The translations under genes were made by a program, and so were the position numbers. Positions 23,649 through 58,200 of a DNA stretch of 64,000 bases are shown here, piece by piece (positions within the stretch are counted from its first letter, which is position 1; each line of letters begins with the position of its first letter). The stretch spans positions 12,774,001 to 12,838,000 of the forward strand of contig NC_087245.1 in the NCBI RefSeq assembly GCF_037042905.1. The letters are read 5' to 3'. The notes below the pieces were generated by a model. The model ran no database searches. It saw only the letters and a program-made list of their open reading frames with translations, and was not told where the DNA came from. The DNA is from Lytechinus pictus (taxonomy: Eukaryota).

Positions 23649-24809
23649 CTTGGTGCTATGGGATCTAAATGAAAAACACATATATATATGTATATATTTA
23701 ATAAAGGCCACACCTACAACATTGTTCATCTCAGCATAGAAAATCTATTACTTTCAAATAAGATTTATTATCAAAAGAAGGTCATCTGAGGTAGCAAGTT
23801 CAAATCAAAAGTATAACAAACTATAAGTATAAGATCTGTCAGTGTTGCATTTTGTCTGGTTGGGATAGAACTATCCTCACCCAAGAGAATTCTGCTTAAT
23901 AGACAAAACAGCCCAAGATCCTGAGACAATATCTTCAAACCATTTTTTTTTCAACTGTATACTGGTGGATTGCCTCATGAAATTTGAAGATTGGTAAAAG
24001 GGGTGATGCCTTGCTAGATAATGGCTCACCAGTCACAAACCCTTTAAACAACTTGTCAGGGCACATATTTGATACTTAAGAAGTAGGCCTACTTTAGTCA
24101 GACTGCAGGTCCCTATGCTAATGTGCTAGCAAATGAGCAAGATTTATCAAAATCCTCTTGTGGCTGAATTTACATCAATGCAACAAAATCTTGTGAATTG
24201 TGAGGCTTTCTTTCTCAAGAAATTAACCACTTTATCTCATGTAAAATTGAACATTTTGTACCATATGAAAATGTTACTCTTCTATATTGGTAATTTCTTT
24301 AAAAAAACATTTTGATAAATTAAAGAATTTCAGGCATGAAAAGATGACTCTAATTGTGCAAAACCTTTACTTTGAACCCGAATACTATCTATATCATCAG
24401 AAAGCTCAAACTCTGTACTTTCTCACAATATCACTCTTGATATGTGGCACCTTTTAGATGGCGCAAGAGCCATCTTTCCCATTAAGATACAAGACAAGAT
24501 TTCTGAAATTTCTGAGTAGCATTAAATCAAGAGTTCTGGTTGGCTAAATAATGCTTCAAAACAACAAGCGCAGGTAATTTGAAGAGATTACCAAATAGTG
24601 AGTGTGACTTTGGAGAGGCCCCAGCATGGAAACCGTTGGATTTTGGGTGGGTGTGTTGTATCTTTCACCAATCAGAGTGCAGTATTCTTGTTTGCAAGCT
24701 GTTAAATGAACTTGGCCTATGAAAAACTGGAAGCTGACTCATCTAAAATACCTCTTCTTATAAAACCTATATCATATCAAAGCTTAGATCTTCAGCTTTA
24801 TTTAAAACT

Positions 24810-25990
24810 CATTTGGGCTCAAACTAACACATCAATGATGTGGAGCTCATCTGGCATCTTGCAACAAAATTTAACACAAATTTTAATTTCAGCCCAGTTG
24901 ACGCTGTAGTGAATTATATTGGTGACATAAATTGAGGAAACAATTGAAATTGATGAAGAAATGTCAGAGAAGCATGTTTATTTGATTGATGAATAAATTT
25001 CATATAAAGTAGCATAAATAATTTTCTTGTCAAAATGTCTAAATTCTGTGTAGAACCTTGGTGAACCTCAAGTAGCTCTCAGATGGAACAAAAAACTAGC
25101 ACATCAATGATGTGGAGCTCATCCAGCATATTGTGACAAATTTTAATAAAATTTTCCATTTCAGTTCAGTTGACACTATAGTAAATTATTATCCCTGAAT
25201 TATATTTGTGACATAAATTGAGAAAGCAGAATTGAAATTGATGAAGAAATGACAAACAAGCATTTTTGGTGATTAATGAATAAATTTAGTAGAAAATTAG
25301 CATAGATAATTTTCGAGTCAAAATTTCTAAATTATGTGTAGAACCTTGGTGAACCTCATGCAGCTCTCAGAGACTCAGATGGAACAAAAATAAAATCAAA
25401 ATCAGTTAAAAAATAAGCATTTTTTGTGAGTTTTGAAAAATATGCATAAATTAGCATATTTAATGAGTTTCAACATTTTGTGTAGAAATTTTGTATCCCC
25501 ACCTAGAGCTTTCATATAAAGCAAACAAAATTGAAATTGATCGACAAATGAAGGAGAAAAGCATTTTTTGTGATTTATGAATAAATTTTGCATAAATTAG
25601 CATAAATAATTTTCTAGTCATATTTTTCAAAATTCTGTGTGGAAGTTTGGTGAACCTCATGTAGCTTACCAGATGGATGAAAAAAAAATCCTAATTAGTC
25701 AACAAATAAAGAAGAAGCATTTTTGATGATTATGAATAAATTTTGCATAAATAAGCACAATTTTCTAGTCAAAATTTCAAAATTTGGAGTACAAGTTTGG
25801 TGAACCTCATGAAGCTCTACTACATGTAGATGGAAGCAAAAAAAAATCAAAATCGGTCAACAAATAAAAGAAGCATTTTTTGTGAATTTTAATGTGCATA
25901 AATTAGCACATTTAATGAGTTTCAAATTTCTTTGTAGAAGTTTTTAATCCCCCACCTAGTGACTTGAAATGACGAAGAAGCATTTTGAAA
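24810..25990. repeat. Degenerate tandem repeats (~180-310 bp), probably transposon-derived, in the PP2D1 5' intron
   Basis: Recurrent TGGTGAACCTCA, CATAAATTAGCATA and GAAGCATTTTT blocks. Confidence 0.55.
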
Positions 25991-27359
25991 TTGTGGACGG
26001 ACGACTTTGCAACATCCTTCCAAAGGGAACTTGAATAGAAAGATGATCAAAAATGGTCAAAAATACATTTTCAAAGTCTTTATATTCTCAGGATAATAAA
26101 ATATTGTAAGACTAGCTCATCAGTGATGTTGTTGTTTTCTCAACTTTTCCCATAGAAAACACACATTCGGTAATACGGTACCATTTTCAAGTGACCAAAA
26201 TATTTCACATGGGAACAGGAGTCCGATTCGAAGCTAATATCGTAAAAAGGAAAAACGATTTCAGCAAAATGTTTACAAATTTATATTTTGTAGGTAATTG
26301 TGTATTTATGGTGAAAGTTTGGTGAATTTTACGAGAATAATGTGTTTGATATGATTGAATTCATGAAAAGTGTTCGGTAATACGATCCACTACCATACGA
26401 TCCAATAGTTTACCATACCCATCCATACACAACACACATCTTACTTCAGATCATAGACAGCTGGCAGCCGTCTGTTTCGAGGAGTTTTTAAACATTTTTT
26501 ATTTTTTTAATTTCTCCTCATACACAGACGGCTCGCTATCGTGCAGCCACCATTAGGGGACTTACAATGCAAAATCCCCCCGTCGGGGCTCTTCAATTTG
26601 TGTCTTTAATGAATCAAACTTTTGAAAATTAACGCGACCGAAATGCGAATTAATATTCCCTCTTGGCATTAATTGCCAAAAAACAGGGAAAATCAAGTTA
26701 AAAGGAACAAAAACAGTGACTTACCTTGGCTGTCGCGCAGCTTCATTGCCCTGTTTTATCCGAACTTAATACACATAAACATATGGCCATTGAGTCCCCT
26801 GTACAGATCGCGCTAGAACTTCGGTCTCTGTATTTGGTGAGTGAAGCCAACGGAGTTCAGCTGAACAACCAACATAACAGAGACCGAAGCTTTTGGTCTA
26901 TTCAGATCAAAGACAAAATTCAGTAGGTCCCTAGCCTAGGTAAGAAGTCAAGACCTTTGTCTTTGAACAAATACATTTATAAGGACCTGGACAATGGTCT
27001 TTACCTTCTAATCTTTCACAAATTTTATTTAAAAAAAACAATGACTATGTTGAAAATGTCTCTTCTTAGCTTTTATCTTTTGGTCAACCCATCTTGACTC
27101 GGGAACCGAATTAGCATCACAACGGCAAAAGAAAAACGCCAAGTTGAGGTTACGATTTTAAGTGTTTCTCACCAAAATAGAGGTCTAAATCAAGCACTGA
27201 CTCCCCTGATTATGAAGTTAGAGAAGAAATAAGATTAAGAAACAGTCCTTCGTTGGGCTCAACTGCCATAACTGCAGATTGATTCAAGAGTAAAGGCCGA
27301 TCTCGAACAACGGCCGTTCAAAGTCCCAGCGCTTTGTCGTTTGGTGCTAGCTGGCATGG

Positions 27360-28180
27360 ACCAGGCTGAAGCCAGCGCACAAACCCAGCGCACAGAATAT
27401 ATTGAAGCAAGCCAGCGCACAAACCCAGCGCACAGAGCTATCGCGATACAAACCGCCCTACACCGTATGCATAGTCTAATAGTTGCAGACCCTAAATACA
27501 GCTTAAATTCAAACGTCTCGAAGATTGTCATAATGCGCACGAAAAATGGTATTAAGATAAAAGGCATAGTTATCCAAACTTACAGATGGCTGAAAATATG
27601 GAATTTCAATAATGCACTATTCCACAATATGATTGCTTCAAATATTAGTATATGACTGATTTGTATAACATTTGAATATATTAAGAATTAAAGGGAGTAT
27701 GTTTCTATATGACATGGCATGAATGCAGCTGAAAGTAGAAGAATCAAACAAATTTGGTAAAATGTAAACAAAATCGGACAAGGATAACAGAGTTATGATA
27801 TTCTAAAGATCCGCATTTCGGCCAGTTCTATATGCCTTAAATTTCTTCTTTAACATTCATTGGAGAAAAGTAATCTCTCCTGTATATTCCATCTTTTTTA
27901 ATCATATGAATTTATGAATATTCAAATTTCCTCCCCCTAGAATAAAAAATATTGTATCAAACAAAATTTAATGCATTTGTTCATTAATTCATGGATATTA
28001 TCTTAATATAAGAGACATTACATGATTTAAAAAACGACTTCATGTAAGAACATTTTATAAGCGAAACGAAAGTTGGAACACGACATCATGATAACTTCAA
28101 ATGGATAGTCATGACTGCGTGCATTTTATTTTCACAAAATACTGCTGACCTCAAAATTCTCTTTTGTAAATTTGACTCTT
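27360..28180 (+). repeat. Left outer inverted arm
   Basis: Reverse-complement alignment to ~54430-55283. One mismatch in the first ~105 bp, more diverged inward. Confidence 0.92.
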
Positions 28181-28412
28181 TTGTAAATGATGTCTCTATT
28201 AGTATATTATGATGAAAGAAGTTGCAACAACAAATAACTGAAGTACTGAATCAGTTCCAACTGTTTTAGTCCCAGGTAAAAATAAAGTGGTAGAAAATCA
28301 TATAATAAAATACAAAAGTCCGAGTGGGGATAACCGATATGATATCATCAGCCCACCTAATGAATATTCATGAAGACATTAATATCTATATCAAATTCTC
28401 AATAAAAATTAC

Positions 28413-31400
28413 ACCCCCTGCATTTTGGGGCATCGTAGACCCCGTCCCCCTTTTCTGTGCACCAATGTTCACCCCTAGATCGATGAAGTGATTAATAAAG
28501 ATCAATTTGGTTGATTTTCAAGACATAAAATCGTGATTTCGATTAGCGGCGAATTTATTACAAGACCAAAGTGGAATTGTTGGAATACACGTATATAATA
28601 CATATATAGCACGCGCTATATTTTCGTCCTTGCACCCCCTACCTCTCGGGGCATCGTAGACCCCGTCCCCCTTTTCTGTGCACCAATGTTCACCCCTAGA
28701 TCGATGAAGTGATTAATAAAGATCAATTTGGTTGATTTTCAAGACATAAAATGGTGATTTCGATTAGCGGCGAATTTATTACCAGACCAAAGTGGAATTG
28801 TTGGAATATACACGTACATAATATAGCACGCCATAATAGCAGGCGCCGTATTTTCGTCAATGCACCCCCACCTTTCGGGGCATCGTAGACCCCGTCCCCT
28901 TTTTCTGTGCACCAATGTTCACCCCTAGATCGATGTAGTGATTAATAAAGATCAATTTGGTTGATTTTCAAGACATAAAATTGTGATTTCGATTAGCGGC
29001 GAATTTATTACCAGACCAAAGTGGAATTGTTGGAATACACGTATATAATACTTACATAGCACGCGCTATATTTTCGTCCTTGCACCCCCTACCTCTCGGG
29101 GCATTGTAGACCCCGTCCCCCTTTTCTGTGCACCAATGTTCACCCCTAGATCGATGAAGTGATTAATAAAGATCAATTTGGTTGATTTTCAAGACATAAA
29201 ATTGTGATTTCGATTAGCGGCGAATTTATTACCAGACCAAAGTGGAATTGTTGGAATACACGTACATAATATAGCACGCCATAATAACAAGTGCCGTATT
29301 TTCGTCAATGCACCCCCACCTTTCGGGGCATCGTAGACCCCGTCCCCCTTTTCTGTGCACCAATGTTCACCCCTAGATCGATGAAGTGATTAATAAAGAT
29401 CAATTTGGTTGATTTTCAAGACATAAAATTGTGATTTCGATTAGCGGCGAATTTATTACCAGACCAAAGTGGAATTGTTGGAATACGCGTACATAATATA
29501 GCACGCCATAATAACAAGTGCCGTATTTTCGTCAATGCACCCCCACCTTTCGGGGCATCGTAGACCCCGTCCCCCTTTTCTGTGCACCAATGTTCACCCC
29601 TAGATCGATGAAGTGATTAAAATAAAGATCAATTTGGTTGATTTTCAAGACATAAAATTGTGATTTCGATTAGCGGCGAATTTATTACCAGACCAAAGTG
29701 GAATTGATGGAATACACGTATATAATACATATATAGCACGCGCTATTTTTTCGTCCTTGCACCCCCTACCTCTCGGGGCATCGTAGACCCCGTCCCCCTT
29801 TTCTGTGCACCAATGTTCACCCCTAGATCGATGAAGTGATTAATAAAGATCAATTTGGTTGATTTTCAAGACATAAAATTGTGATTTCGATTAGCGGCGA
29901 ATTTATTACCAGACCAAAGTGGAATTGTTGGAATACACGTACATAATATAGCACGCCATAATAACAAGTGCCGTATTTTCGCCAATGCACCCCCACCTTT
30001 CGGGGCATCGTAGACCCCGTCCCCCTTTTCTGTGCACCAATGTTCACCCCTAGATCGATGAAGTGATTAATAAAAATCAATTTGGTTGATTTTCAAGACA
30101 TAAAATTGTGATTTCGATTAGCGGCGAATTTATTACCAGACCAAAGTGGAATTGTTGGAATACACGTACATAATATAGCACGCCATAATAACAAGTGCCG
30201 TATTTTCGCCAATGCACCCCCACCGTTCGGGGCATCGTAGACCCCGTCCCCCTTTTCTGTGCACCAATGTTCACCCCTAGATCGATGAAGTGATTAATAA
30301 AGATCAATTTGGTTGATTTTCAAGACATAAAATTGTGATTTCGATTAGCGGCGAATTTATTACCAGACCAAAGTGGAATTGATGGAATACACGTATATAA
30401 TACATATATAGCACGCGCTATATTTTCGTCCTTGCACCCCCTACCTCTCGGGGCATCGTAGACCCCGTCCCCCTTTGTGCACCAATGTTCACCCCTAGAT
30501 CGATGTAGTGATTAATAAAGATCAATTTGGTTGATTTTCAAGACATAAAATTGTGATTTCGATTAGCGGCGAATTTATTACCAGACCAAAGTGGAATTGT
30601 TGGAATACACGTACATAATATAGCACGCCATAATAACAAGTGCCGTATTTTCGCCAATGCACCCCCACCTTTCGGGGCATCGTAGACCCCGTCCCCCTTT
30701 TCTGTGCACCAATGTTCACCACTAGATCGATGAAGTGATTAATAAAAATCAATTTGGTTGATTTTCAAGACATAAAATTGTGATTTCGATTAGCGGCGAA
30801 TTTATTACCAGACCAAAGTGGAATTGTTGGAATACACGTACATAATATAGCACGCCATAATAACAAGTGCCGTATTTTCGCCAATGCACCCCCACCTTTC
30901 GGGGCATCGTAGACCCCGTCCCCCTTTTCTGTGCACCAATGTTCACCCCTAGATCGATGAAGTGATTAATAAAGATCAATTTGGTTGATTTTCAAGACAT
31001 AAAATTGTGATTTCGATTAGCGGCGAATTTATTACCAGACCAAAGTGGAATTGTTGGAATATACACGTACATAATAATTATAGCACGCCATAATAGCAGG
31101 CGCCGTATTTTCGTCAATGCACCCCCACCTTTCGGGGCATCGTAGACCCCGTCCCCTTTTCTGTGCACCAATGTTCACCCCTAGATCGATGTAGTGATTA
31201 ATAAAGATCAATTTGGTTGATTTTCAAGACATAAAATTGTGATTTCGATTAGCGGCGAATTTATTACCAGACCAAAGTGGAATTGATGGAATACACGTAT
31301 ATAATACATATATAGCACGCGCTATATTTTCGTCCTTGCACCCCCTACCTCTCGGGGCATCGTAGACCCCGTCCCCCTTTTCTGTGCACCAATGTTCACC

Positions 31401-34400
31401 CCTAGATCGATGTAGTGATTAATAAAGATCAATTTGGTTGATTTTCAAGACATAAAATTGTGATTTCGATTAGCGGCGAATTTATTACCAGACCAAAGTG
31501 GAATTGTTGGAATACACGTACATAATATAGCACGCCATAATAACAAGTGCCGTATTTTCGTCAATGCACCCCCACCTTTCGGGGCATCGTAGACCCCGTC
31601 CCCCTTTTCTGTGCACCAATGTTCACCCCTAGATCGATGAAGTGATTAATAAAGATCAATTTGGTTGATTTTCAAGACATAAAATTGTGATTTCGATTAG
31701 CGGCGAATTTATTACCAGACCAAAGTGGAATTGTTGGAATACGCGTACATAATATAGCACGCCATAATAACAAGTGCCGTATTTTCGTCAATGCACCCCC
31801 ACCTTTCGGGGCATCGTAGACCCCGTCCCCCTTTTCTGTGCACCAATGCACCCCTAGATCGATGAAGTGATTAATATAAAGATCAATTTGGTTGATTTTC
31901 AAGACATAAAATTGTGATTTCGATTAGCGGCGAATTTATTACCAGACCAAAGTGGAATTGATGGAATACACGTATATAATACATATATAGCACGCGCTAT
32001 TTTTTCGTCCTTGCACCCCCTACCTCTCGGGGCATCGTAGACCCCGTCCCCCTTTTCTGTGCACCAATGTTCACCCCTAGATCGATGAAGTGATTAATAA
32101 AGATCAATTTGGTTGATTTTCAAGACATAAAATTGTGATTTCGATTAGCGGCGAATTTATTACCAGACCAAAGTGGAATTGTTGGAATACACGTACATAA
32201 TATAGCACGCCATAATAACAAGTGCCGTATTTTCGTCAATGCACCCCCACCTTTCGGGGCATCGTAGACCCCGTCCCCCTTTTCCGTGCACCAATGTTCA
32301 CCCCTAGATCGATGTAGTGATTAATAAAGATCAATTTGGTTGATTTTCAAGACATAAAATTGTGATTTCGATTAGCGGCGAATTTATTACCACACCAAAG
32401 TGGAATTGATGGAATACACGTATATAATACATATATAGCACGCGCTATATTTTCGTCCTTGCACCCCCTACCTCTCGGGGCATCGTAGACCCCGTCCCCC
32501 TTTTCTGTGCACCAATGTTCACCCCTAGATCGATGAAGTGATTAATAAAGATCAATTTGGTTGATTTTCAAGACATAAAATTGTGATTTCGATTAGCGGC
32601 GAATTTATTACCAGACCAAAGTGGAATTGTTGGAATACACGTACATAATATAGCACGCCATAATAACAAGTGCCGTATTTTCGCCAATGCACCCCCACCT
32701 TTCGGGGCATCGTAGACCCCGTCCCCCTTTTCTGTGCACCAATGTTCACCACTAGATCGATGAAGTGATTAATAAAAATCAATTTGGTTGATTTTCAAGA
32801 CATAAAATTGTGATTTCGATTAGCGGCGAATTTATTACCAGACCAAAGTGGAATTGTTGGAATACACGTACATAATATAGCACGCCATAATAACAAGTGC
32901 CGTATTTTCGCCAATGCACCCCCACCTTTCGGGGCATCGTAGACCCCGTCCCCCTTTTCTGTGCACCAATGTTCACCCCTAGATCGATGAAGTGATTAAT
33001 AAAGATCAATTTGGTTGATTTTCAAGACATAAAATTGTGATTTCGATTAGCGGCGAATTTATTACCAGACCAAAGTGGAATTGTTGGAATATACACGTAC
33101 ATAATAATTATAGCACGCCATAATAGCAGGCGCCGTATTTTCGTCAATGCACCCCCACCTTTCGGGGCATCGTAGACCCCGTCCCCTTTTCTGTGCACCA
33201 ATGTTCACCCCTAGATCGATGTAGTGATTAATAAAGATCAATTTGGTTGATTTTCAAGACATAAAATTGTGATTTCGATTAGCGGCGAATTTATTACCAG
33301 ACCAAAGTGGAATTGATGGAATACACGTATATAATACATATATAGCACGCGCTATATTTTCGTCCTTGCACCCCCTACCTCTCGGGGCATCGTAGACCCC
33401 GTCCCCCTTTTCTGTGCACCAATGTTCACCCCTAGATCGATGAAGTGATTAATAAAGATCAATTTGGTTGATTTTCAAGACATAAAATTGTGATTTCGAT
33501 TAGCGGCGAATTTATTACCAGACCAAAGTGGAATTGTTGGAATACACGTACATAATATAGCACGCCATAATAACAAGTGCCGTATTTTCGTCAATGCACC
33601 CCCACCTTTCGGGGCATCGTAGACCCCGTCCCCCTTTTCTGTGCACCAATGTTCACCCCTAGATCGATGAAGTGATTAATAAAGATCAATTTGGTTGATT
33701 TTCAAGACATAAAATTGTGATTTCGATTAGCGGCGAATTTATTACCAGACCAAAGTGGAATTGTTGGAATACGCGTACATAATATAGCACGCCATAATAA
33801 CAAGTGCCGTATTTTCGTCAATGCACCCCCACCTTTCGGGGCATCGTAGACCCCGTCCCCCTTTTCTGTGCACCAATGTTCACCCCTAGATCGATGAAGT
33901 GATTAATATAAAGATCAATTTGGTTGATTTTCAAGACATAAAATTGTGATTTCGATTAGCGGCGAATTTATTACCAGACCAAAGTGGAATTGATGGAATA
34001 CACGTATATAATACATATATAGCACGCGCTATTTTTTCGTCCTTGCACCCCCTACCTCTCGGGGCATCGTAGACCCCGTCCCCCTTTTCTGTGCACCAAT
34101 GTTCACCCCTAGATCGATGAAGTGATTAATAAAGATCAATTTGGTTGATTTTCAAGACATAAAATTGTGATTTCGATTAGCGGCGAATTTATTACCAGAC
34201 CAAAGTGGAATTGTTGGAATACACGTACATAATATAGCACGCCATAATAACAAGTGCCGTATTTTCGTCAATGCACCCCCACCTTTCGGGGCATCGTAGA
34301 CCCCGTCCCCCTTTTCCGTGCACCAATGTTCACCCCTAGATCGATGTAGTGATTAATAAAGATCAATTTGGTTGATTTTCAAGACATAAAATTGTGATTT

Positions 34401-37400
34401 CGATTAGCGGCGAATTTATTACCAGACCAAAGTGGAATTGATGGAATACACGTATATAATACATATATAGCACGCGCTATATTTTCGTCCTTGCACCCCC
34501 TACCTCTCGGGGCATCGTAGACCCCGTCCCCCTTTTCTGTGCACCAATGTTCACCCCTAGATCGATGAAGTGATTAATAAAGATCAATTTGGTTGATTTT
34601 CAAGACATAAAATTGTGATTTCGATTAGCGGCGAATTTATTACCAGACCAAAGTGGAATTGTTGGAATACACGTACATAATATAGCACGCCATAATAACA
34701 AGTGCCGTATTTTCGCCAATGCACCCCCACCTTTCGGGGCATCGTAGACCCCGTCCCCCTTTTCTGTGCACCAATGTTCACCACTAGATCGATGAAGTGA
34801 TTAATAAAAATCAATTTGGTTGATTTTCAAGACATAAAATTGTGATTTCGATTAGCGACGAATTTATTACCAGACCAAAGTGGAATTGTTGGAATACACG
34901 TACATAATATAGCACGCCATAATAACAAGTGCCGTATTTTCGCCAATGCACCCCCACCTTTCGGGGCATCGTAGACCCCGTCCCCCTTTTCTGTGCACCA
35001 ATGTTCACCCCTAGATCGATGAAGTGATTAATAAAGATCAATTTGGTTGATTTTCAAGACATAAAATTGTGATTTCGATTAGCGGCGAATTTATTACCAG
35101 ACCAAAGTGGAATTGTTGGAATATACACGTACATAATAATTATAGCACGCCATAATAGCAGGCGCCGTATTTTCGTCAATGCACCCCCACCTTTCGGGGC
35201 ATCGTAGACCCCGTCCCCTTTTCTGTGCACCAATGTTCACCCCTAGATCGATGTAGTGATTAATAAAGATCAATTTGGTTGATTTTCAAGACATAAAATT
35301 GTGATTTCGATTAGCGGCGAATTTATTACCAGACCAAAGTGGAATTGATGGAATACACGTATATAATACATATATAGCACGCGCTATATTTTCGTCCTTG
35401 CACCCCCTACCTCTCGGGGCATCGTAGACCCCGTCCCCCTTTTCTGTGCACCAATGTTCACCCCTAGATCGATGAAGTGATTAATAAAGATCAATTTGGT
35501 TGATTTTCAAGACATAAAATTGTGATTTCGATTAGCGGCGAATTTATTACCAGACCAAAGTGGAATTGTTGGAATACACGTACATAATATAGCACGCCAT
35601 AATAACAAGTGCCGTATTTTCGTCAATGCACCCCCACCTTTCGGGGCATCGTAGACCCCGTCCCCCTTTTCTGTGCACCAATGTTCACCCCTAGATCGAT
35701 GAAGTGATTAATAAAGATCAATTTGGTTGATTTTCAAGACATAAAATTGTGATTTCGATTAGCGGCGAATTTATTACCAGACCAAAGTGGAATTGTTGGA
35801 ATACGCGTACATAATATAGCACGCCATAATAACAAGTGCCGTATTTTCGTCAATGCACCCCCACCTTTCGGGGCATCGTAGACCCCGTCCCCCTTTTCTG
35901 TGCACCAATGTTCACCCCTAGATCGATGAAGTGATTAATATAAAGATCAATTTGGTTGATTTTCAAGACATAAAATTGTGATTTCGATTAGCGGCGAATT
36001 TATTACCAGACCAAAGTGGAATTGATGGAATACACGTATATAATACATATATAGCACGCGCTATTTTTTCGTCCTTGCACCCCCTACCTCTCGGGGCATC
36101 GTAGACCCCGTCCCCCTTTTCTGTGCACCAATGTTCACCCCTAGATCGATGAAGTGATTAATAAAGATCAATTTGGTTGATTTTCAAGACATAAAATTGT
36201 GATTTCGATTAGCGGCGAATTTATTACCAGACCAAAGTGGAATTGTTGGAATACACGTACATAATATAGCACGCCATAATAACAAGTGCCGTATTTTCGT
36301 CAATGCACCCCCACCTTTCGGGGCATCGTAGACCCCGTCCCCCTTTTCCGTGCACCAATGTTCACCCCTAGATCGATGTAGTGATTAATAAAGATCAATT
36401 TGGTTGATTTTCAAGACATAAAATTGTGATTTCGATTAGCGGCGAATTTATTACCAGACCAAAGTGGAATTGATGGAATACACGTATATAATACATATAT
36501 AGCACGCGCTATATTTTCGTCCTTGCACCCCCTACCTCTCGGGGCATCGTAGACCCCGTCCCCCTTTTCTGTGCACCAATGTTCACCCCTAGATCGATGA
36601 AGTGATTAATAAAGATCAATTTGGTTGATTTTCAAGACATAAAATTGTGATTTCGATTAGCGGCGAATTTATTACCAGACCAAAGTGGAATTGTTGGAAT
36701 ACACGTACATAATATAGCACGCCATAATAACAAGTGCCGTATTTTCGCCAATGCACCCCCACCTTTCGGGGCATCGTAGACCCCGTCCCCCTTTTCTGTG
36801 CACCAATGTTCACCACTAGATCGATGAAGTGATTAATAAAAATCAATTTGGTTGATTTTCAAGACATAAAATTGTGATTTCGATTAGCGGCGAATTTATT
36901 ACCAGACCAAAGTGGAATTGTTGGAATACACGTACATAATATAGCACGCCATAATAACAAGTGCCGTATTTTCGCCAATGCACCCCCACCTTTCGGGGCA
37001 TCGTAGACCCCGTCCCCCTTTTCTGTGCACCAATGTTCACCCCTAGATCGATGAAGTGATTAATAAAGATCAATTTGGTTGATTTTCAAGACATAAAATT
37101 GTGATTTCGATTAGCGGCGAATTTATTACCAGACCAAAGTGGAATTGTTGGAATATACACGTACATAATAATTATAGCACGCCATAATAGCAGGCGCCGT
37201 ATTTTCGTCAATGCACCCCCACCTTTCGGGGCATCGTAGACCCCGTCCCCTTTTCTGTGCACCAATGTTCACCCCTAGATCGATGTAGTGATTAATAAAG
37301 ATCAATTTGGTTGATTTTCAAGACATAAAATTGTGATTTCGATTAGCGGCGAATTTATTACCAGACCAAAGTGGAATTGATGGAATACACGTATATAATA

Positions 37401-46400: not shown

Positions 46401-49400
46401 CAAAGCGGAATTGTTGGAATACACGTACATAATATAGCACGCCATAATAACAAGTGCCGTATTTTCGTCAATGCACCCCCACCTTTCGGGGCATCGTAGA
46501 CCCCGTCCCCCTTTTCCGTGCACCAATGTTCACCCCTAGATCGATGAAGTGATTACTAAAGATCAATTTGGTTGATTTTCAAGAAATAAAATCGTGATTT
46601 CGATTAGCGGCGAATTTATTACCAGACCAAAGCGGAATTGTTGGAATACACGTACATAATATAGCACGCCATAATAACAAGTGCCGTATTTTCGTCAATG
46701 CACCCCCACCTTTCGGGGCATCGTAGACCCCGTCCCCCTTTTCCGTGCACCAATGTTCACCCCTAGATCGATGAAGTGATTACTAAAGATCAATTTGGTT
46801 GATTTTCAAGAAATAAAATCGTGATTTTGATTAGCGGCGAATTTATTACCAGACCAAAGCGGAATTGTTGGAATACACGTACATAATATAGCACGCCATA
46901 ATAACAAGTGCCGTATTTTCGTCAATGCACCCCCACCTTTCGGGGCATCGTAGACCCCGTCCCCCTTTTCCGTGCACCAATGTTCACCCCTAGATCGATG
47001 AAGTGATTACTAAAGATCAATTTGGTTGATTTTCAAGAAATAAAATCGTGATTTCGATTAGCGGCGAATTTATTACCAGACCAAAGCGGAATTGTTGGAA
47101 TACACGTACATAATATAGCACGCCATAATAACAAGTGCCGTATTTTCGTCAATGCACCCCCACCTTTCGGGGCATCGTAGACCCCGTCCCCCTTTTCCGT
47201 GCACCAATGTTCACCCCTAGATCGATGAAGTGATTACTAAAAATCAATTTGGTTGATTTTCAAGAAATAATATCGTGATTATGACTAGCGGCGAATTTAT
47301 TACCAGACCAAAGCGGAATTGTTGGAATACACGTACATAATATAGCACGCCATAATAACAAGTGCCGTATTTTCGTCAATGCACCCCCACCTTTCGGGGC
47401 ATCGTAGACCCCGTCCCCCTTTTCTGTGCACCAATGTTCACCCCTAGATCGATGAAGTGATTAATATAAAGATCAATTTGGTTGATTTTCAAGACATAAA
47501 ATTGTGATTTCGATTAGCGGCGAATTTATTACCAGACCAAAGTGGAATTGATGGAATACACGTATATAATACATATATAGCACGCGCTATTTTTTCGTCC
47601 TTGCACCCCCTACCTCTCGGGGCATCGTAGACCCCGTCCCCCTTTTCTGTGCACCAATGTTCACCCCTAGATCGATGAAGTGATTAATAAAGATCAATTT
47701 GGTTGATTTTCAAGACATAAAATTGTGATTTCGATTAGCGGCGAATTTATTACCAGACCAAAGTGGAATTGTTGGAATACACGTACATAATATAGCACGC
47801 CATAATAACAAGTGCCGTATTTTCGTCAATGCACCCCCACCTTTCGGGGCATCGTAGACCCCGTCCCCCTTTTCCGTGCACCAATGTTCACCCCTAGATC
47901 GATGTAGTGATTAATAAAGATCAATTTGGTTGATTTTCAAGACATAAAATTGTGATTTCGATTAGCGGCGAATTTATTACCAGACCAAAGTGGAATTGAT
48001 GGAATACACGTATATAATACATATATAGCACGCGCTATATTTTCGTCCTTGCACCCCCTACCTCTCGGGGCATCGTAGACCCCGTCCCCCTTTTCTGTGC
48101 ACCAATGTTCACCCCTAGATCGATGAAGTGATTAATAAAGATCAATTTGGTTGATTTTCAAGACATAAAATTGTGATTTCGATTAGCGGCGAATTTATTA
48201 CCAGACCAAAGTGGAATTGTTGGAATACACGTACATAATATAGCACGCCATAATAACAAGTGCCGTATTTTCGCCAATGCACCCCCACCTTTCGGGGCAT
48301 CGTAGACCCCGTCCCCCTTTTCTGTGCACCAATGTTCACCACTAGATCGATGAAGTGATTAATAAAGATCAATTTGGTTGATTTTCAAGACATAAAATTG
48401 TGATTTCGATTAGCGGCGAATTTATTACCAGACCAAAGTGGAATTGTTGGAATACACGTACATAATATAGCACGCCATAATAACAAGTGCCGTATTTTCG
48501 CCAATGCACCCCCACCTTTCGGGGCATCGTAGACCCCGTCCCCCTTTTCTGTGCACCAATGTTCACCCCTAGATCGATGAAGTGATTAATAAAGATCAAT
48601 TTGGTTGATTTTCAAGACATAAAATTGTGATTTCGATTAGCGGCGAATTTATTACCAGACCAAAGTGGAATTGTTGGAATATACACGTACATAATAATTA
48701 TAGCACGCCATAATAGCAGGCGCCGTATTTTCGTCAATGCACCCCCACCTTTCGGGGCATCGTAGACCCCGTCCCCTTTTCTGTGCACCAATGTTCACCC
48801 CTAGATCGATGTAGTGATTAATAAAGATCAATTTGGTTGATTTTCAAGACATAAAATTGTGATTTCGATTAGCGGCGAATTTATTACCAGACCAAAGTGG
48901 AATTGATGGAATACACGTATATAATACATATATAGCACGCGCTATATTTTCGTCCTTGCACCCCCTACCTCTCGGGGCATCGTAGACCCCGTCCCCCTTT
49001 TCTGTGCACCAATGTTCACCCCTAGATCGATGAAGTGATTAATAAAGATCAATTTGGTTGATTTTCAAGACATAAAATTGTGATTTCGATTAGCGGCGAA
49101 TTTATTACCAGACCAAAGTGGAATTGTTGGAATACACGTACATAATATAGCACGCCATAATAACAAGTGCCGTATTTTCGTCAATGCACCCCCACCTTTC
49201 GGGGCATCGTAGACCCCGTCCCCCTTTTCTGTGCACCAATGTTCACCCCTAGATCGATGAAGTGATTAATAAAGATCAATTTGGTTGATTTTCAAGACAT
49301 AAAATTGTGATTTCGATTAGCGGCGAATTTATTACCAGACCAAAGTGGAATTGTTGGAATACGCGTACATAATATAGCACGCCATAATAACAAGTGCCGT

Positions 49401-49628
49401 ATTTTCGTCAATGCACCCCCACCTTTCGGGGCATCGTAGACCCCGTCCCCCTTTTCTGTGCACCAATGTTCACCCCTAGATCGATGAAGTGATTAATAAA
49501 GATCAATTTGGTTGATTTTCAAGACATAAAATTGTGATTTCGATTAGCGGCGAATTTATTACCAGACCAAAGTGGAATTGTTGGAATACACGTACATAAT
49601 ATAGCACGCCATAATAACAAGTGCCGTA
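28413..49628 (+). repeat. ~227-bp satellite, forward array (~94 monomers) with 2032-bp higher-order repeat
   Basis: Tandem monomers of 221, 227, 229 and 232 bp containing GGGGCATCGTAGACCCCGTCCCCCTTTTCTGTGCACCAATG. ORF-track copies recur at 227 and 2032 bp spacing. Confidence 0.98.
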
Positions 49629-52600
49629 AGGGGGACGGGGTCTACGATGCCCCGAAAGGTGGGGGTGCATTGACGAAAATACGGCACTTGTTATTATGGC
49701 GTGCTATATTATGTACGTGTATTCCAACAATTCCGCTTTGGTCTGGTAATAAATTCGCCGCTAGTCGAAATCACGATTTTATTTCTTGAAAATCAACCAA
49801 ATTGATCTTTAGTAATCACTTCATCGATCTAGGGGTGAACATTGGTGCACGGAAAAGGGGGACGGGGTCTACGATGCCCCGAAAGGTGGGGGTGCATTGA
49901 CGAAAATACGGCACTTGTTATTATGGCGTGCTATATTATGTACGTGTATTCCAACAATTCCGCTTTGGTCTGGTAATAAATTCGCCGCTAATCGAAATCA
50001 CGATTTTATTTCTTGAAAATCAACCAAATTGATCTTTAGTAATCACTTCATCGATCTAGGGGTGAACATTGGTGCACGGAAAAGGGGGACGGGGTCTACG
50101 ATGCCCCGAAAGGTGGGGGTGCATTGACGAAAATACGGCACTTGTTATTATGGCGTGCTATATTATGTACGTGTATTCCAACAATTCCGCTTTGGTCTGG
50201 TAATAAATTCGCCGCTAATCGAAATCACGATTTTATTTCTTGAAAATCAACCAAATTGATCTTTAGTAATCACTTCATCGATCTAGGGGTGAACATTGGT
50301 GCACGGAAAAGGGGGACGGGGTCTACGATGCCCCGAAAGGTGGGGGTGCATTGACGAAAATACGGCACTTGTTATTATGGCGTGCTATATTATGTACGTG
50401 TATTCCAACAATTCCGCTTTGGTCTGGTAATAAATTCGCCGCTAATCGAAATCACGATTTTATTTCTTGAAAATCAACCAAATTGATCTTTAGTAATCAC
50501 TTCATCGATCTAGGGGTGAACATTGGTGCACGGAAAAGGGGGACGGGGTCTACGATGCCCCGAAAGGTGGGGGTGCATTGACGAAAATACGGCACTTGTT
50601 ATTATGGCGTGCTATATTATGTACGTGTATTCCAACAATTCCGCTTTGGTCTGGTAATAAATTCGCCGCTAATCGAAATCACGATTTTATTTCTTGAAAA
50701 TCAACCAAATTGATCTTTAGTAATCACTTCATCGATCTAGGGGTGAACATTGGTGCACGGAAAAGGGGGACGGGGTCTACGATGCCCCGAAAGGTGGGGG
50801 TGCATTGACGAAAATACGGCACTTGTTATTATGGCGTGCTATATTATGTACGTGTATTCCAACAATTCCGCTTTGGTCTGGTAATAAATTCGCCGCTAAT
50901 CGAAATCACGATTTTATTTCTTGAAAATCAACCAAATTGATCTTTAGTAATCACTTCATCGATCTAGGGGTGAACATTGGTGCACGGAAAAGGGGGACGG
51001 GGTCTACGATGCCCCGAAAGGTGGGGGTGCATTGACGAAAATACGGCACTTGTTATTATGGCGTGCTATATTATGTACGTGTATTCCAACAATTCCGCTT
51101 TGGTCTGGTAATAAATTCGCCGCTAATCGAAATCACGATTTTATTTCTTGAAAATCAACCAAATTGATCTTTATTAATCACTTCATCGATCTAGGGGTGA
51201 ACATTGGTGCACGGAAAAGGGGGACGGGGTCTACGATGCCCCGAAAGGTGGGGGTGCATTGACGAAAATACGGCACTTGTTATTATGGCGTGCTATATTA
51301 TGTACGTGTATTCCAACAATTCCGCTTTGGTCTGGTAATAAATTCGCCGCTAATCGAAATCACGATTTTATTTCTTGAAAATCAACCAAATTGATCTTTA
51401 GTAATCACGTCATCGATCTAGGGGTGAACATTGGTGCACGGAAAAGGGGGACGGGGTCTACGATGCCCCGAAAGGTGGGGGTGCATTGACGAAAATACGG
51501 CACTTGTTATTATGGCGTGCTATATTATGTACGTGTATTCCAACAATTCCGCTTTGGTCTGGTAATAAATTCGCCGCTAGTCGAAATCACGATTTTATTT
51601 CTTGAAAATCAACCAAATTGATCTTTAGTAATCACGTCATCGATCTAGGGGTGAACATTGGTGCACGGAAAAGGGGGACGGGGTCTACGATGCCCCGAAA
51701 GGTGGGGGTGCATTGACGAAAATACGGCACTTGTTATTATGGCGTGCTATATTATGTACGTGTATTCCAACAATTCCGCTTTGGTCTGGTAATAAATTCG
51801 CCGCTAGTCGAAATCACGATTTTATTTCTTGAAAATCAACCAAATTGATCTTTATTAATCACTTCATCGATCTAGGGGTGAACATTGGTGCACGGAAAAG
51901 GGGGACGGGGTCTACGATGCCCCGAAAGGTGGGGGTGCATTGACGAAAATACGGCACTTGTTATTATGGCGTGCTATATTATGTACGTGTATTCCAACAA
52001 TTCCGCTTTGGTCTGGTAATAAATTCGCCGCTAGTCGAAATCACGATATTATTTCTTGAAAATCAACCAAATTGATCTTTAGTAATCACTTCATCGATCT
52101 AGGGGTGAACATTGGTGCACGGAAAAGGGGGACGGGGTCTACGATGCCCCGAAAGGTGGGGGTGCATTGACGAAAATACGGCACTTGTTATTATGGCGTG
52201 CTATATTATGTACGTGTATTCCAACAATTCCGCTTTGGTCTGGTAATAATTAAATTCGCCGCTAATCGAAATCACGATTTTATTTCTTGAAAATCAACCA
52301 AATTGATCTTTAGTAATCACTTCATCGATCTAGGGGTGAACATTGGTGCACGGAAAAGGGGGACGGGGTCTACGATGCCCCGAAAGGTGGGGGTGCATTG
52401 ACGAAAATACGGCACTTGTTATTATGGCGTGCTATATTATGTACGTGTATTCCAACAATTCCGCTTTGGTCTGGTAATAAATTCGCCGCTAATCGAAATC
52501 ACGATTTTATTTCTTGAAAATCAACCAAATTGATCTTTAGTAATCACTTCATCGATCTAGGGGTGAACATTGGTGCACGGAAAAGGGGGACGGGGTCTAC

Positions 52601-53985
52601 GATGCCCCGAAAGGTGGGGGTGCATTGACGAAAATACGGCACTTGTTATTATGGCGTGCTATATTATGTACGTGTATTCCAACAATTCCGCTTTGGTCTG
52701 GTAATAAATTCGCCGCTAGTCGAAATCACGATATTATTTCTTGAAAATCAACCAAATTGATCTTTAGTAATCACTTCATCGATCTAGGGGTGAACATTGG
52801 TGCACGGAAAAGGGGGACGGGGTCTACGATGCCCCGAAAGGTGGGGGTGCATTGACGAAAATACGGCACTTGTTATTATGGCGTGCTATATTATGTACGT
52901 GTATTCCAACAATTCCGCTTTGGTCTGGTAATAAATTCGCCGCTAATCGAAATCACGATTTTATTTCTTGAAAATCAACCAAATTGATCTTTAGTAATCA
53001 CTTCATCGATCTAGGGGTGAACATTGGTGCACGGAAAAGGGGGACGGGGTCTACGATGCCCCGAAAGGTGGGGGTGCATTGACGAAAATACGGCACTTGT
53101 TATTATGGCGTGCTATATTATGTACGTGTATTCCAACAATTCCGCTTTGGTCTGGTAATAAATTCGCCGCTAGTCGAAATCACGATTTTATTTCTTGAAA
53201 ATCAACCAAATTGATCTTTAGTAATCACTTCATCGATCTAGGGGTGAACATTGGTGCACGGAAAAGGGGGACGGGGTCTACGATGCCCCGAAAGGTGGGG
53301 GTGCATTGACGAAAATACGGCACTTGTTATTATGGCGTGCTATATTATGTACGTGTATTCCAACAATTCCGCTTTGGTCTGGTAATAAATTCGCCGCTAA
53401 TCGAATTCACGATTTTATTTCTTGAAAATCAACCAAATTGATCTTTAGTAATCACGTCATCGATCTAGGGGTGAACATTGGTGCACGGAAAAGGGGGACG
53501 GGGTCTACGATGCCCCGAAAGGTGGGGGTGCATTGACGAAAATACGGCACTTGTTATTATGGCGTGCTATATTATGTACGTGTATTCCAACAATTCCGCT
53601 TTGGTCTGGTAATAAATTCGCCGCTAATCGAAATCACGATTTTATTTCTTGAAAATCAACCAAATTGATCTTTATTAATCACTTCATCGATCTAGGGGTG
53701 AACATTGGTGCACAGAAAAAGGGGACGGGGTCTACGGTGCCCCGAAATGTCGGGGTGCGTTGACGAAAATATCGCGCGCGCTATGTGTGTTCGTGTATTC
53801 CAACATTTTCGCTTTGGTGGCCGGGGGCTGGTAATAAATTAGCCGCTAATCGAAAATAACATTTTATGTCATGAAAATTAACCAGAGTTATCTTCATTAA
53901 TCACTTCATCGATTTAGGGGTGAACTTTAAATGGTGCACAAAAAAGGGGACGGCGTCTAAGATGCTCCGAAACGCAGGTAGTGCT
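49629..53985 (-). repeat. Same satellite, inverted array (~19 monomers), homogeneous 227-bp variant
   Basis: Reverse complement of the monomer. The last copies (53700-53985) are degenerate. Confidence 0.98.
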
Positions 53986-54429
53986 TCAAAGTTGTTATGT
54001 AATTTTTTCTGAGAATTTAATGTGGTCTACCCCCCCCCCCCCCTGTTCCAAGGCCCATGCGAGAGGGACTGATCCTTCATATGAAATTAATTAACTGATG
54101 CATTTTATTTAGGGAATAAGCAAAAACTATATTGATACACATAGGAAACTCAGAACACATAAACTGGTTGCATACTCCGCGCTGGAAATAAGATAGGATG
54201 GGAGGTCGGGTGTCCGGACACTTTATATTTTTGAAGCCTTCTTTTTTGTCTTTGGATTACACTAAAAATATGAATTCAATAGCTGTAATCATCTTCTGTT
54301 GTGTTCTTTATATTGTTTCCTAACATTTTGTACTAAAAATTGATGAAACTTCGATCGCTTGTAAATTTTTCAAAATGACTTTCTAAAATTGATCGTCCGG
54401 ACACACAACAACTGGGTATAGTTATTAAT

Positions 54430-55283
54430 AAGAGTTGAATTTACAAAAGAGAATCCGGAAGCAATCATCAAACTCTGATACTGAATTTTGAAGTAAGCAG
54501 TATTTTGTGAAAATAAAATGCACGCAGTCATAACTATCTATTTGAAGTGATCATGATGACGTGTTCCAACTTCGTTTTGCTTATAAAATGCTCTTGCATG
54601 AAATCATTTTTTAATCATGTGATGTCGCTTATTAAAATAATGTCCATAAATTAATGAAAAAATGCATTAAATATTTTTAATACAATATTTGTAATTCTAT
54701 AGGAGGAGGAAATTTGAATAATCATGAATTCATGTGATTAAAAAAGTGGGAATATACAGGAGAGATTACTTTTCTCCATTGAATGTTAAAGAAGAAATGC
54801 ATATAGAACTGGCCGAAATGCGGATCTTTAAAATATCATAACTCTATTAACCTTGTCCGATATTGTTTACATTTTACCAACTTTGTTTGATTCTTCTTTA
54901 TCTGTATTATTTTCAGCTGCACTCATGCCATATAGAAACATACTCCATTCAATTCTTAATGATTATATTCAAATGTTATACAAATCAGTCATATACTAAT
55001 ATTTGAAGCAATCATAATGTGGAATAGTGCATTATGGAAGTTCCATATTTTCAATCATCTGTAAGTTCCGGTAACTATGCCTTTTTACTATACCATTTCC
55101 GTGCGCATTATGACAATATTCGAGACGTTTGAGAATTTAAGCTGTATTTAGGGTCTGCGACTAATAGACTACGCACACGGTGTAGGGCGGTTTGTATCGC
55201 GATAGCTCTGTGCGCTGGATTTGTGCGCTGGCTTGCTTCAATATATTCTGTGCGCTGGGTTTGTGCGCTGGCTTCAGCCTGGT
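54430..55283 (-). repeat. Right outer inverted arm
   Basis: Mirror of 27360-28180. The ORF track shows the same spurious peptide DQAEASAQTQRTEYIEASQRTNPAHRAIAIQTALHR on opposite strands. Confidence 0.92.
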
Positions 55284-58200
55284 CTGGCATGGCACGGGCA
55301 GCGAATTGCAGATTGGCCAGTCCTGATCCTGTCGGGGCGCGGCCGGGCTGCGCGGCGCGAACGTGATAGCTCGGCCAAAAGCTCCAGCAGCTCTTGAGTG
55401 AGCTGCTTGAAAACTAGATGATAATGAGCGAAAGAGGGCTCACCATCAAACAGGATTTCGTTTCCATAACTACGAATTGGATGGATGGTGGCCGGCCGTA
55501 TGATTTCCGCTGGGGTAAAGAAAATTATCGAACTGAGAGAAACATTGCCCAGGCCTGACGTTGCTCCAAATAACAATTATTGCACACTTTTATTTTCATA
55601 AACTGAAATTGCTGGTACTTAATGAAGTCAATACTTGCAAGCAAAAAGGGGGTGCATTTTGCATGTATGAAAAAGTTGACAGAAAACATGAATTTAAGGA
55701 CGATTTTGCTTTCTCCAACAAACCCTCTCATTCCTACCCTATATCCTCACTCCCCCACCCCTCTTACTCACTCATACCCCCTTCTAATTCTCCCTCTCTG
55801 TCACTGCCATCCCTCTACCGCCCCCCTTTCTTTTAATACACCCTCTACCCCTTCCACTCAATTTTTTCAAGTAGGTTGTTGCTATTTATACTATGCAAGT
55901 CTTTATCATTTTTTTTCATTGAAAACGGTCATATTTCTTATTCCGATTTGAATTTCTCTTTATAAAAAATAGATACAACAAACAAAAAAAGTATCTTTGA
56001 CTAAACCAGATTTGCAAGAATTGTTTTTTCACAAAGATATATCAACTCTGTATTTTTAAATGCAGTGCTTGATAAATCAGACCTTTCAAAACACTCATTG
56101 ATATCTGCAATGATCATTCTATTTTTACCAATAGTCAAAAAATATATATATATCATTAATTTGTTCCCATTTTCTTCAAGAGGCACATTACTGTTATTTA
56201 TCTATATTCATTATGTACTTTAAATTCAAAGTTAGCCATACCCAGGCATTTCTCCCAAACCATCAAGCCATCTTTGGTTCTCTAAAATTGATTTTCACAC
56301 TAAAAATCCTGCCTAGGTGTTCATATGAACACTACTAACCCAAATCACATAATATCCTAAATAAGTAATTCAACTAAATAAACAATCAGTCTCCTCATCA
56401 GTTTTCTTTTCTTATAATTGCTTCCATAGTTCACATAAATGAAAGAACAAAAATTAGAGGAAAACAATACAAACAAAATGTAAAATTGACAAATCATTAC
56501 ATAACATTGCATAATTTCATGGACTTGGAAAGTAGACTTTCTTACATCAACAAGCTTTTGAGTTTCAATATTGATGAATAAAACAAAATAGGAATATATT
56601 TCCACATAATTGAAGTACTTCAAAAAAAATTGAGGGGACCAAAAGATGGTGTACAGGGTAGACTTTCTAAAGAGGTGCGAGCAAGCAAAAAAAAATTAAA
56701 ATCAAAATCTAATTTAATGATAGATTATTACATAATATTTTAGAATATCACAGTTCAAACTTTTTCTTTTCCAATTTTCCCCTTTTTTTTGGGGGGGGGA
56801 GGGGGGTCATGAAACTTTCGAGGAGGGGGGCAAAACCCTCCAAGAGGCCAACCCTGGCCTTGTCTCAACACTAACACTGGATTATTTGAGGTGTGGTACG
56901 AGCAAAGTCAAAACACCAATACCAGCTCCAAATACTGAATGTTAAATCATCCAGTGAGCGAGAGGGAGAAATCCATTCTAAATATTATCAAGTCCATTGT
57001 TAAAGGAGCATATTCTTGTTACATTTGATTTAAAACTTTGAACAGTTGATTGGCTAACTCCCGATTCATTCTTGTTAAAGGAAAGTAAATGTCACTAAAT
57101 TCCATGATGACACTACTTTCATTTCAACAAACTTAACTCAGAACATCACTATAATTATAATATAATAGCTAATAACAATATATCACTAAATAATTCAATA
57201 TTCAAGCACCATGATTGTAGCCTATATTTGACATGAAAGCACTCCATGGCTTAAAGGCTATGTTCATCCAAACACATGAAAATTCGAGTATAACAAAAAT
57301 GACTCAAATTAAAAACAAACAAATCACACAAAAAATATCCAAATCCAAGAATAGAATATGCATACAATTGTTAATGACATGGACTGCACAAAAAAAATCA
57401 GTGAGACAATGAATTCATTAAATTCAATACTTTGAATACAGCCCATGTTTAAAAGCTTCAAAATGCCATAAACTTTATAATCTCGTGTTTTGAATTTTGA
57501 TGACAATTTATTGTTGTCTTTAATATGTCATAGGCACTTGAAATGAAACTATAGAAAATAATAAAATGTTAGAGTGAAAAGTGTAAATATACATAATTAT
57601 TTCAACATACATGTAGATGAATCTTAGAAATGGTTAAGTTCTTTGTTTTGAACATTTTTGCACTTTATCACAGCAAAACTCAAACTCCTCTCTTTGGACG
57701 GTAATAATTACTTATAATTAATTAACACTCTTAGTACGTTTATTATATAATACTACTCAGGGTGTATCAATAAAAAAGGAAACCGATTATAAGAAATCAT
57801 CAAAGGAAACTTATATTATTTGAAAGTACAACTTATCAGCATTCCAAAGATACATGAACTGTGTTTTCAGAACCACGACTGGTGAACACTCAAGTTCTAA
57901 AAGCAGTACAAAATAGCAAGGGATTTCAGTTTCACTGCAGATTGAATACAGAAATAGTAAGTGTGTCTCTATGGACAATGGAATTATGTATTTGCTTATC
58001 AATTTTTTTTATGAATATTCATTTTTATGCATCTGAATTAAGATTTACTCAATATGCTCAAAGAGGATTCTTGAATAAAAACAAACACAGATTATGGGAT
58101 GGCAAGAAGTAGTGAGATTTGGTAATTTTCGCGTTCCTTTCAGTTTCATTGTTCACTGTGTCACATGTGTGATCCCAGAAGCATCATCAAGGTACAATAA

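Follow-up and report, generated by a model that had tools for sequence, protein, structure and literature searches.

A probable foldback-type transposon family carrying tens of kilobases of satellite DNA in the sea urchin Lytechinus pictus

A 27.9-kb repeat-rich element occupies part of a 64,000-nucleotide stretch of the Lytechinus pictus genome (assembly GCF_037042905.1, contig NC_087245.1, forward-strand positions 12,774,001 to 12,838,000; G000:C1:12774001-12838000 in our notation), referred to here as the window. The element is probably a copy of a young, non-autonomous, foldback-type family of DNA transposons that move by cut and paste. Two inverted arms form its ends, and almost everything between them is satellite DNA. 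Searches for the family covered the whole 812-Mb assembly. They identified 17 inverted pairs of its tips, 15 of which are bounded by perfect target-site duplications (TSDs) of 9 bp. A typical family member is laid out as a 9-bp TSD, an arm of ~0.8-1.3 kb, a satellite array, a non-coding middle segment of ~1 kb, an inverted satellite array, the second arm and the second TSD. Individual copies are referred to below by their contig handles.

The arms of the window copy, aligned from 27360 onward against the reverse complement from 55283, match over 800/801 bp with 20 gap openings, and their outermost 64 bp are identical. The original prediction, made from the letters of the window, had described termini that are reverse complements for ~820 bp. 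Inverted arms with near-identical tips are present, but the arms as a whole are only 89.1% identical. The prediction had also described identical 9-mers flanking the element, and the same word, CTGGCATGG, does abut both ends. One exact 9-bp match has a chance probability of ~4e-6, and the arrangement repeats at 15/17 loci.

In the assembly, the left arm's outer 161 bp finds 40 matches. With up to 2 mismatches allowed, the terminal 22-mer occurs 41 times (40 exact occurrences), against 0 for its reversed-pattern control. These 41 tips form 17 inverted pairs, 7.5-115 kb from tip to tip, and 7 unpaired tips, one of which, on contig C368, belongs to a second copy of the C13 locus. The two ends of all pairs were inspected, and the perfect 9-bp TSDs differ from pair to pair; they occur at 14/16 pairs including the window copy and at the seventeenth pair, on C13. 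The 115-kb pair on C8 is among those with a perfect TSD. Paired arms with different 9-bp duplications and variable lengths, as anticipated from the window sequence, therefore exist elsewhere in the genome. Like foldback elements, the copies have long inverted termini, composed of an outer unique domain and inverted tandem repeats, and short TSDs of fixed length. A 25-mer motif is present twice in each arm, and its 78 genome matches (up to 3 mismatches; control 0) all fall inside the 41 tips. The outer ~160 bp is the best-conserved part of the arm among 34 aligned ends. Judged from sequence, the tip and the 25-mer motif are putative transposase recognition sites.

Over their first ~800 bp the ends fall into three arm types that are 9-11% apart. 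Type A comprises 9 ends (mean divergence within the type 1.3%), type B1 14 ends (2.5%) and type B2 6 ends (0.9%); five further ends are A or B1 arms that are interrupted or truncated. Ten copies combine A with B1, and two combine A with B2. Another two carry B1+B1 (C2b and C7), two carry B1+B2 and one carries B2+B2. The window copy has an A arm and a B1 arm, so the 11% difference between its arms is a family trait and not a measure of age. The suggestion that near-identical tips indicate a recent insertion could not be kept in that form, since arm-to-arm identity provides no dating, but recency is supported by identity from copy to copy. Compared with the nearest relative, on C18, the window arms differ at 3/808 and 7/820 aligned bases (99.6% and 99.1% identity). 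Each of the B1+B1 copies, C2b and C7, has ends that match each other at 99.5-99.6% identity over 1.5 kb. The family of non-autonomous elements is young, and arm divergence of ~1-2% suggests recent, possibly ongoing activity.

Other elements interrupt some of the arms. At the unpaired tip G000:C8:14552619, a B1-type arm is broken at position 416 by a long interspersed nuclear element (LINE) with endonuclease and reverse transcriptase frames (L050 3150-6845). In the C12 copy, the A arm (L019, G000:C12:717138 end) contains an insertion of ~645 bp, and the arm pieces flanking it overlap by 9 bp (positions 491-499), which suggests another element that produces 9-bp TSDs.

Satellite DNA in the window copy amounts to 25.35 kb of one 227-bp family according to Tandem Repeats Finder (TRF), close to the ~25.5 kb of a single satellite estimated at first sight. 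The satellite was also said to be symmetrical with the arms, and both blocks do point the same way relative to their own arm. The switch in orientation is well off-centre, with 21.2 kb on one side and 4.1 kb on the other. The A-side array is a 2,032-bp higher-order repeat of 9 monomers, with a self-identity of 0.76 at lag 2032 versus 0.59 at lag 227. Within it lies a block of 'R-type' monomers, the same variant that makes up the entire inverted right array, and this block is 99% complementary to 49810-52162. Both array orientations are also present in other copies among the candidates of a junction search (18/342 scored). This recurrence bears out the proposal that the satellite acts as an inverted inner domain of the terminal inverted repeat (TIR). 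Sequence comparison detected no similarity between the monomer and the arms, and an Rfam scan of 27000-30500 matched no family. There is no long frame within 27360-55283, where the longest stop-free frame has 97 codons, in agreement with the claim that the element contains no transposase. No coding capacity was found in the window copy, in the C13 copy or in 75 kb of the C8 copy.

Assembly of long inverted satellite arrays is difficult, and the left flank of the window copy is single-copy in the assembly, leaving no second haplotype for comparison. The whole structure could in principle be a sequencing or assembly artefact (a fold-back chimera or a collapsed palindrome), or a product of palindromic amplification or of a reinserted circle, formed without a transposase. 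Such an origin is highly improbable. The same arm pairs with a fixed 9-bp duplication occur at 15/17 independent loci, and contig C368 repeats the C13 copy with an array of equal length. At 49628 the junction is direct and non-palindromic, passing from monomer position 202 to inverted position 27 of a different variant. A fold-back artefact would be symmetrical, and is disfavoured by a non-palindromic junction that joins two different variants.

The head-to-head junction of the window copy is clarified by comparison with its relatives. In the C18 and C5 copies, a non-satellite middle segment separates the inverted arrays. About 1.1 kb of it is common to both at 95% identity, and in both it adjoins one array at monomer position 139. 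A search with a 331-bp probe for this boundary of middle segment and array scored 40 of 2,329 candidates. The probe is full length in at least 5 paired copies (C18, C3a, C7, C5 and C3b) and at one further C16 locus, and it carries a 59-bp deletion in at least 7 more paired copies (C16, C8, C6b, C2a, C2b, C21 and C20); the deleted variant also occurs on C25 and C332. The boundary is in the same monomer register in at least 12/17 paired copies. The variable, usually non-coding middle domain of foldback elements thus has a counterpart here, a homologous segment in at least 12/17 pairs. In C5 and C18, where it was read and compared by BLAST and monomer mapping, no frame reaching 150 aa was found. 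The segment is 82% similar to a miniature inverted-repeat transposable element (MITE) nested in the C13 copy, and is probably an old nested insertion. One boundary of middle segment and array, at G000:C16:29144211-29144535, lies outside every tip pair and may belong to a copy that is decayed or without tips. Nothing in the window matches the middle segment of the C18 copy, and because the segment is missing there, the head-to-head junction is most simply explained by a central deletion.

The family moves as a unit. At position 328 of the B1 arm, one and the same ~600-bp insertion is found in C5 and C3a, copies from different contigs with unlike TSDs, and they are 96.7% identical over 1.5 kb around it. 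Shared landmarks such as this nested insertion and the boundary of array and middle segment show that arms, arrays, middle segment and nested elements reach new sites as one unit. The arrays also turn over fast, as shown by copies that have near-identical arms and unequal lengths: the window copy is 27.9 kb and its nearest relative C18 is 20.2 kb, and the siblings C5 and C3a are 32.9 kb and 52.7 kb.

These differences in length (7.7 kb between the window and C18 copies, ~20 kb between C5 and C3a) and the existence of a short copy on C13 could also be accounted for by a small transposing unit of a few kilobases, like the 7.5-kb C13 copy, whose long arrays grew in place, so that tens of kilobases never moved. 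We regard this alternative as unlikely. In the 12 copies with a located middle segment, the shorter side from tip to middle is still 7-13 kb, and the register of the boundary between array and middle segment is the same. Monomer variants are common to different copies, including the R-type and a variant that matches the reference only to position 175. Movement of the arrays with the arms is the more parsimonious account, since the alternative needs independent growth to a similar extent at 16 loci within ~1-2% arm divergence. The C13 copy, moreover, is a deletion derivative, in which the B1 arm is cut at position 649 and joined to a single-orientation array. Its A arm holds the nested MITE, a 2.6-kb element (L039 5826-8397) with GGACGTTCCACA... 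inverted ends and TTAA(G) flanks. In the 75 kb of the C8 copy that was read, the satellite is in one orientation and is broken by an 11.9-kb nested element.

Copies vary in where the middle segment lies, at distances of 7 to 102 kb from either tip. In C5 and C3a it runs in opposite directions, though arm A is on the left in both. This fits a flip-flop inversion by recombination between the inverted arrays, which would also explain the R-type monomers on both sides of the window copy.

In the mechanism proposed for the family, a transposase supplied in trans would bind, on each arm, the invariant 22-bp tip and both 25-bp subterminal motifs, excise the whole unit and reinsert it at a 9-bp staggered cut. 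After or between moves the arrays go on changing; they would gain or lose units by unequal exchange, and the central part would flip through recombination between the inverted arrays. In the window copy a central deletion would have removed the middle segment. Pairing of the inverted arrays within one strand may bring the tips together and make copies of 20-115 kb able to move.

Satellite DNA of this family is not confined to the paired copies. When up to 2 mismatches are allowed, a 22-mer common to most monomers is matched 14,732 times in the genome, with 10,483 of the matches forward and 4,249 reverse (control 0). The 17 paired copies could hold roughly 2,500 monomers, as estimated from their lengths, and about five-sixths (~84%) of the satellite therefore lies outside intact copies. 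It is a tentative proposal, and one that we think will more probably fail than hold, that the satellite as a whole (~14,700 monomers, ~3.3 Mb) spread through the genome mainly by cut-and-paste movement of TSD-bounded blocks of 20-115 kb, which would be among the largest non-autonomous TIR elements known from animals, with folding relaxing the limit on size. If it is true, the free arrays are decayed or tip-less elements, and each insertion sets a potential block of heterochromatin beside genes. An older subfamily is present on C6 (L051, G000:C6:16387619-16410900), with arms 83-87% identical, satellite units of ~237 bp, a tip without one of the subterminal repeats and an array of at least 23 kb; its right-hand tip was not found at this locus.

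The superfamily of the element can be approached from its TSD length and architecture only, and on these grounds Mutator, in a Foldback/Rehavkus-like form, is the most likely assignment, held with moderate confidence. The TSDs of the paired copies agree with the ~9 bp (8-11) of Mutator (PMC6446971). The combination of a 9-bp TSD with tandem repeats beside the TIR, as in Rehavkus, is also found, here with a 227-bp unit on both sides. The original prediction had placed the element with Mutator/Foldback; the 9-bp TSDs and the foldback architecture favour that placement, but no Mutator-like element (MULE) or other transposase with these tips was found to go with it.

A predicted transposase of the right general kind does exist in the genome. 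A separate, intact foldback element of 14,767 bp lies at G000:C18:17456660-17471426 (loci L070-L073, L053 and L075) and, by its sequence, has the Rehavkus architecture described in PMC6446971. Its outer TIRs match over ~270-290 bp at 83% identity, its inverted 48-bp tandem-repeat arrays are ~2.2 and 1.8 kb long (44 copies on the left), and its TSD is the 8-bp GATTTCCA. The gene at 17462734-17465247 is a frame of 838 aa, in which a MULE domain scores 41.7 bits and a PHD finger at the C-terminus reaches 23.8 bits, just below the Pfam cut-off of 24. A second frame of 233 aa is without a Pfam match. The 838-aa protein has one full copy, two broken fragments at one C14 locus and weaker relatives, none of them near a family tip. 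This element represents a Rehavkus-like architecture in an echinoderm, and the hosts listed in PMC6446971 are arthropods and annelids only.

Four candidate sources of a transposase were rejected. The frames at the unpaired tip locus L050 belong to the LINE inserted in the arm. The C13 insert of 2.6 kb is a MITE, nested and flanked by TTAA(G), and in the 11.9-kb C8 insert no frame reaches 160 aa. The 838-aa MULE+PHD protein was set aside as well; its element has unrelated tips, and none of its copies lies near a family tip.

The same mobile unit could instead be served by a transposase outside Mutator, whether Merlin-, hAT- or P-like or of an undescribed kind, with a foldback shape acquired by convergence, as in Galileo of the P superfamily. 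The lack of a MULE gene linked to the tips and one copy with an 8-bp TSD are compatible with this, but we give it a rather low probability. The TSDs of hAT and P elements are typically 8 and 7-8 bp, respectively, which counts against such an origin. This genome also contains an intact foldback-type MULE+PHD element of the same architecture. Foldback structure can arise independently in different superfamilies, as stated in PMC4079207; the TSDs here are nevertheless exactly 9 bp in 15/17 pairs, and 9 bp is the length tabulated for Rehavkus and many MULE groups in PMC6446971.

Several observations weigh against the interpretation of the window element as a member of a cut-and-paste, Mutator-type family. 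Searches of the whole assembly with the 22-mer, 16-mer and 25-mer found no transposase with the family tips. All matches to the three are tips of satellite-bearing copies or unpaired one-mismatch matches; with the 16-mer tip, up to 1 mismatch gave 13 extra matches, none of them paired (control 3). The genome has 17 MULE-domain matches, and 0 are inside a copy. The tips of the MULE+PHD element on C18 have no similarity to the family tips beyond chance. TSDs of 8-9 bp are also made by other superfamilies, such as Merlin. Of the two pairs without a clean 9-bp TSD, C2b has 8 bp in common and C10 no more than 7 bp, offset by 2 bp. Full reading covered the window and C13 copies and, for C8, 75 kb only, and hairpin-assisted synapsis is purely conjectural. 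No empty site or presence/absence polymorphism was found in the assembly or in the contigs of 4 public runs on 25000-28400.

The flanks of the window copy set the terms of that last comparison. The 400-bp left flank is single-copy in the assembly, which therefore offers no alternative haplotig, and the unique left flank is limited to 26938-27359. The public contigs of one organism cover the unique flank to roughly the insertion point and leave the outer arm at 27394-27735 without cover, which is no evidence of absence; no loose contig end at 27359/27360 is among the rows listed. The arm is present in the public contigs of two organisms, with 1 mismatch in 200-220 bp. Within the left inner segment, ~44 bp at 28336-28379 have a very high contig depth in all 4 runs, including that of the organism without arm cover, and are probably part of another widespread repeat. 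Further out in the left flank, 25000-26937 is repeated to very high copy number in public contigs from three organisms, and it contains a 150-bp tandem duplication at 25555-25880.

A gene on the left encodes a PP2C-like phosphatase, with exons at 20660-23744 on the minus strand, ~3.6 kb from the left end of the element. The minus-strand exon at 20660-21796 shares 97% identity with a protein of Lytechinus pictus and 62% with one of Diadema, which points to a sea urchin, Lytechinus or a near relative, as the source of the window. Two other repeats occur in the window, a 156-bp tandem repeat of 2.9 copies at 4743-5202 and an 88-bp unit of 1.9 copies at 9349-9518, whose consensus is largely self-complementary and has a MITE-like look. 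The features of the window copy are given in Table 1.

Table 1. Features of the window copy, in window coordinates
Feature	Position	Strand	Basis or remark
Outer flanks		 	...GGTGCTAG left of left TSD; CACGGGCA... right of right TSD
Left TSD, CTGGCATGG	27351..27359	none	Identical to 55284-55292
Family tip			Starts ACCAGGCTGAAGCC...
Left arm, outer domain, type A	27360..28159	+	89.1% to right arm over 800 bp
Subterminal 25-mer motif copy 1, CCAGCGCACAAACCCAGCGCACAGA	27372..27396	+	Putative transposase binding site
Subterminal 25-mer motif copy 2, left arm	27412..27436	+	
Inner segment of left end	28160..28422	+	Without counterpart at right end
A-side satellite array, 93.9 monomers of 227 bp	28423..49628	+	TRF, monomer map
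Block of 10 homogeneous R-type monomers within A-side array	45125..47391	+	Monomer map
Head-to-head array junction	49628..49629	none	Middle segment of the family missing here
B-side satellite array, 18.2 inverted R-type monomers	49629..53771	-	TRF, monomer map; 99% internal matches
Degenerate edge monomer	53825..53969	-	Monomer map; 84% to reference monomer
Inner segment of right end	53970..54482	-	Without counterpart at left end
Right arm, outer domain, type B1	54483..55283	-	Arm alignment and type clustering
25-mer motif in right arm	55207-55231		One mismatch
25-mer motif in right arm	55247-55271		Exact
Right TSD, CTGGCATGG	55284..55292	none	Identical to left TSD

How satellites arrive at new chromosomal sites is a long-standing question. 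Spread by transposons has been proposed for Tetris and for the Rehavkus-like elements of Tribolium, mostly from copies that have short arrays or are rearranged. The family reported here, with 17 complete copies and 15 exact TSDs, is an unusually clean case for tens of kilobases of satellite as the cargo of a transposon. It also forms a natural series for the study of array turnover, flip-flop inversion and the effect of a 20-100-kb satellite block beside genes. Activity that is recent and possibly ongoing would fall in a group of laboratory models. A literature search, in which subscription journals were thinly covered, returned no paper on such an element in a sea urchin.

Tetris of Drosophila virilis is among the closest likenesses. 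According to PMC4079207, Tetris is a non-autonomous foldback element for which no transposase was found. Its outer TIR domain measures at most 866 bp, its tandem repeats are ~220 bp long, its middle domain is variable and non-coding, and its TSDs are 8-10 bp. Free arrays of its repeats (TIR-220) exist as well, with as many as 66 copies, whereas the element itself has three complete copies, and it was put in Mutator from TSD length alone (PMC4079207). Like Tetris, the present family is non-autonomous, with an outer domain of ~800 bp, inverted 227-bp repeats, a non-coding middle and free satellite arrays. Unlike Tetris, with 3 structurally complete copies and few repeats per TIR in that description, it has 17 tip pairs, 15 of them with perfect TSDs. 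Long arrays are thought to have disrupted the Tetris element, whereas the window copy holds ~112 monomers and the C8 copy at least 270. TIR-220 is ~80% like its own outer domain; the monomer described here is without similarity to the arms. The host of Tetris belongs to another phylum, and Tetris was compared by description only.

Rehavkus elements encode a MULE-type transposase with a PHD finger, and the hosts listed for them are arthropods and annelids (PMC6446971). In Tribolium, Rehavkus-like foldback elements carry satellites in their inverted termini. The satellite TfSat06 forms inverted termini of >11 kb in transposon-like elements, another satellite has expanded to 80.5 kb, and the authors propose transposition as the means by which TfSat06 spread (PMC12581902). 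The present family shares with these elements the 9-bp TSD, a TIR with subterminal tandem repeats and satellites on several chromosomes. It differs from Rehavkus in that no MULE+PHD gene is linked to it and its host is an echinoderm, and from the Tribolium case as described there in having 15 copies each with a verified TSD and single arrays of up to ~100 kb.

Two older systems are also comparable. The TU elements of Strongylocentrotus purpuratus, reportedly described by Liebermann et al. in 1983, are said to have long inverted termini with an outer domain and a tandem-repeat inner domain. They are reported to be a heterogeneous, modular family with short TSDs, inner repeats of ~15 bp and a size of a few kilobases for whole elements. 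Compared by description only, they come from the same animal class and have similar modular inverted termini, but the present family has a 227-bp unit and is far larger. FB of Drosophila melanogaster has long inverted termini of tandem repeats, a 9-bp TSD and mostly non-coding copies, and belongs to the Mutator superfamily; its repeat units are tens of bp and its termini a few kilobases. The family resembles FB in its repeat-built inverted termini and 9-bp TSD, and differs from it in its 227-bp unit and arrays of tens of kilobases. FB is the founding example of foldback elements according to PMC4079207. In architecture and TSD length, the Lytechinus family is the same as known foldback elements. 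It stands out in the number of its intact, TSD-bounded copies, the size of its arrays, the internal landmarks that show co-mobility and its echinoderm host.

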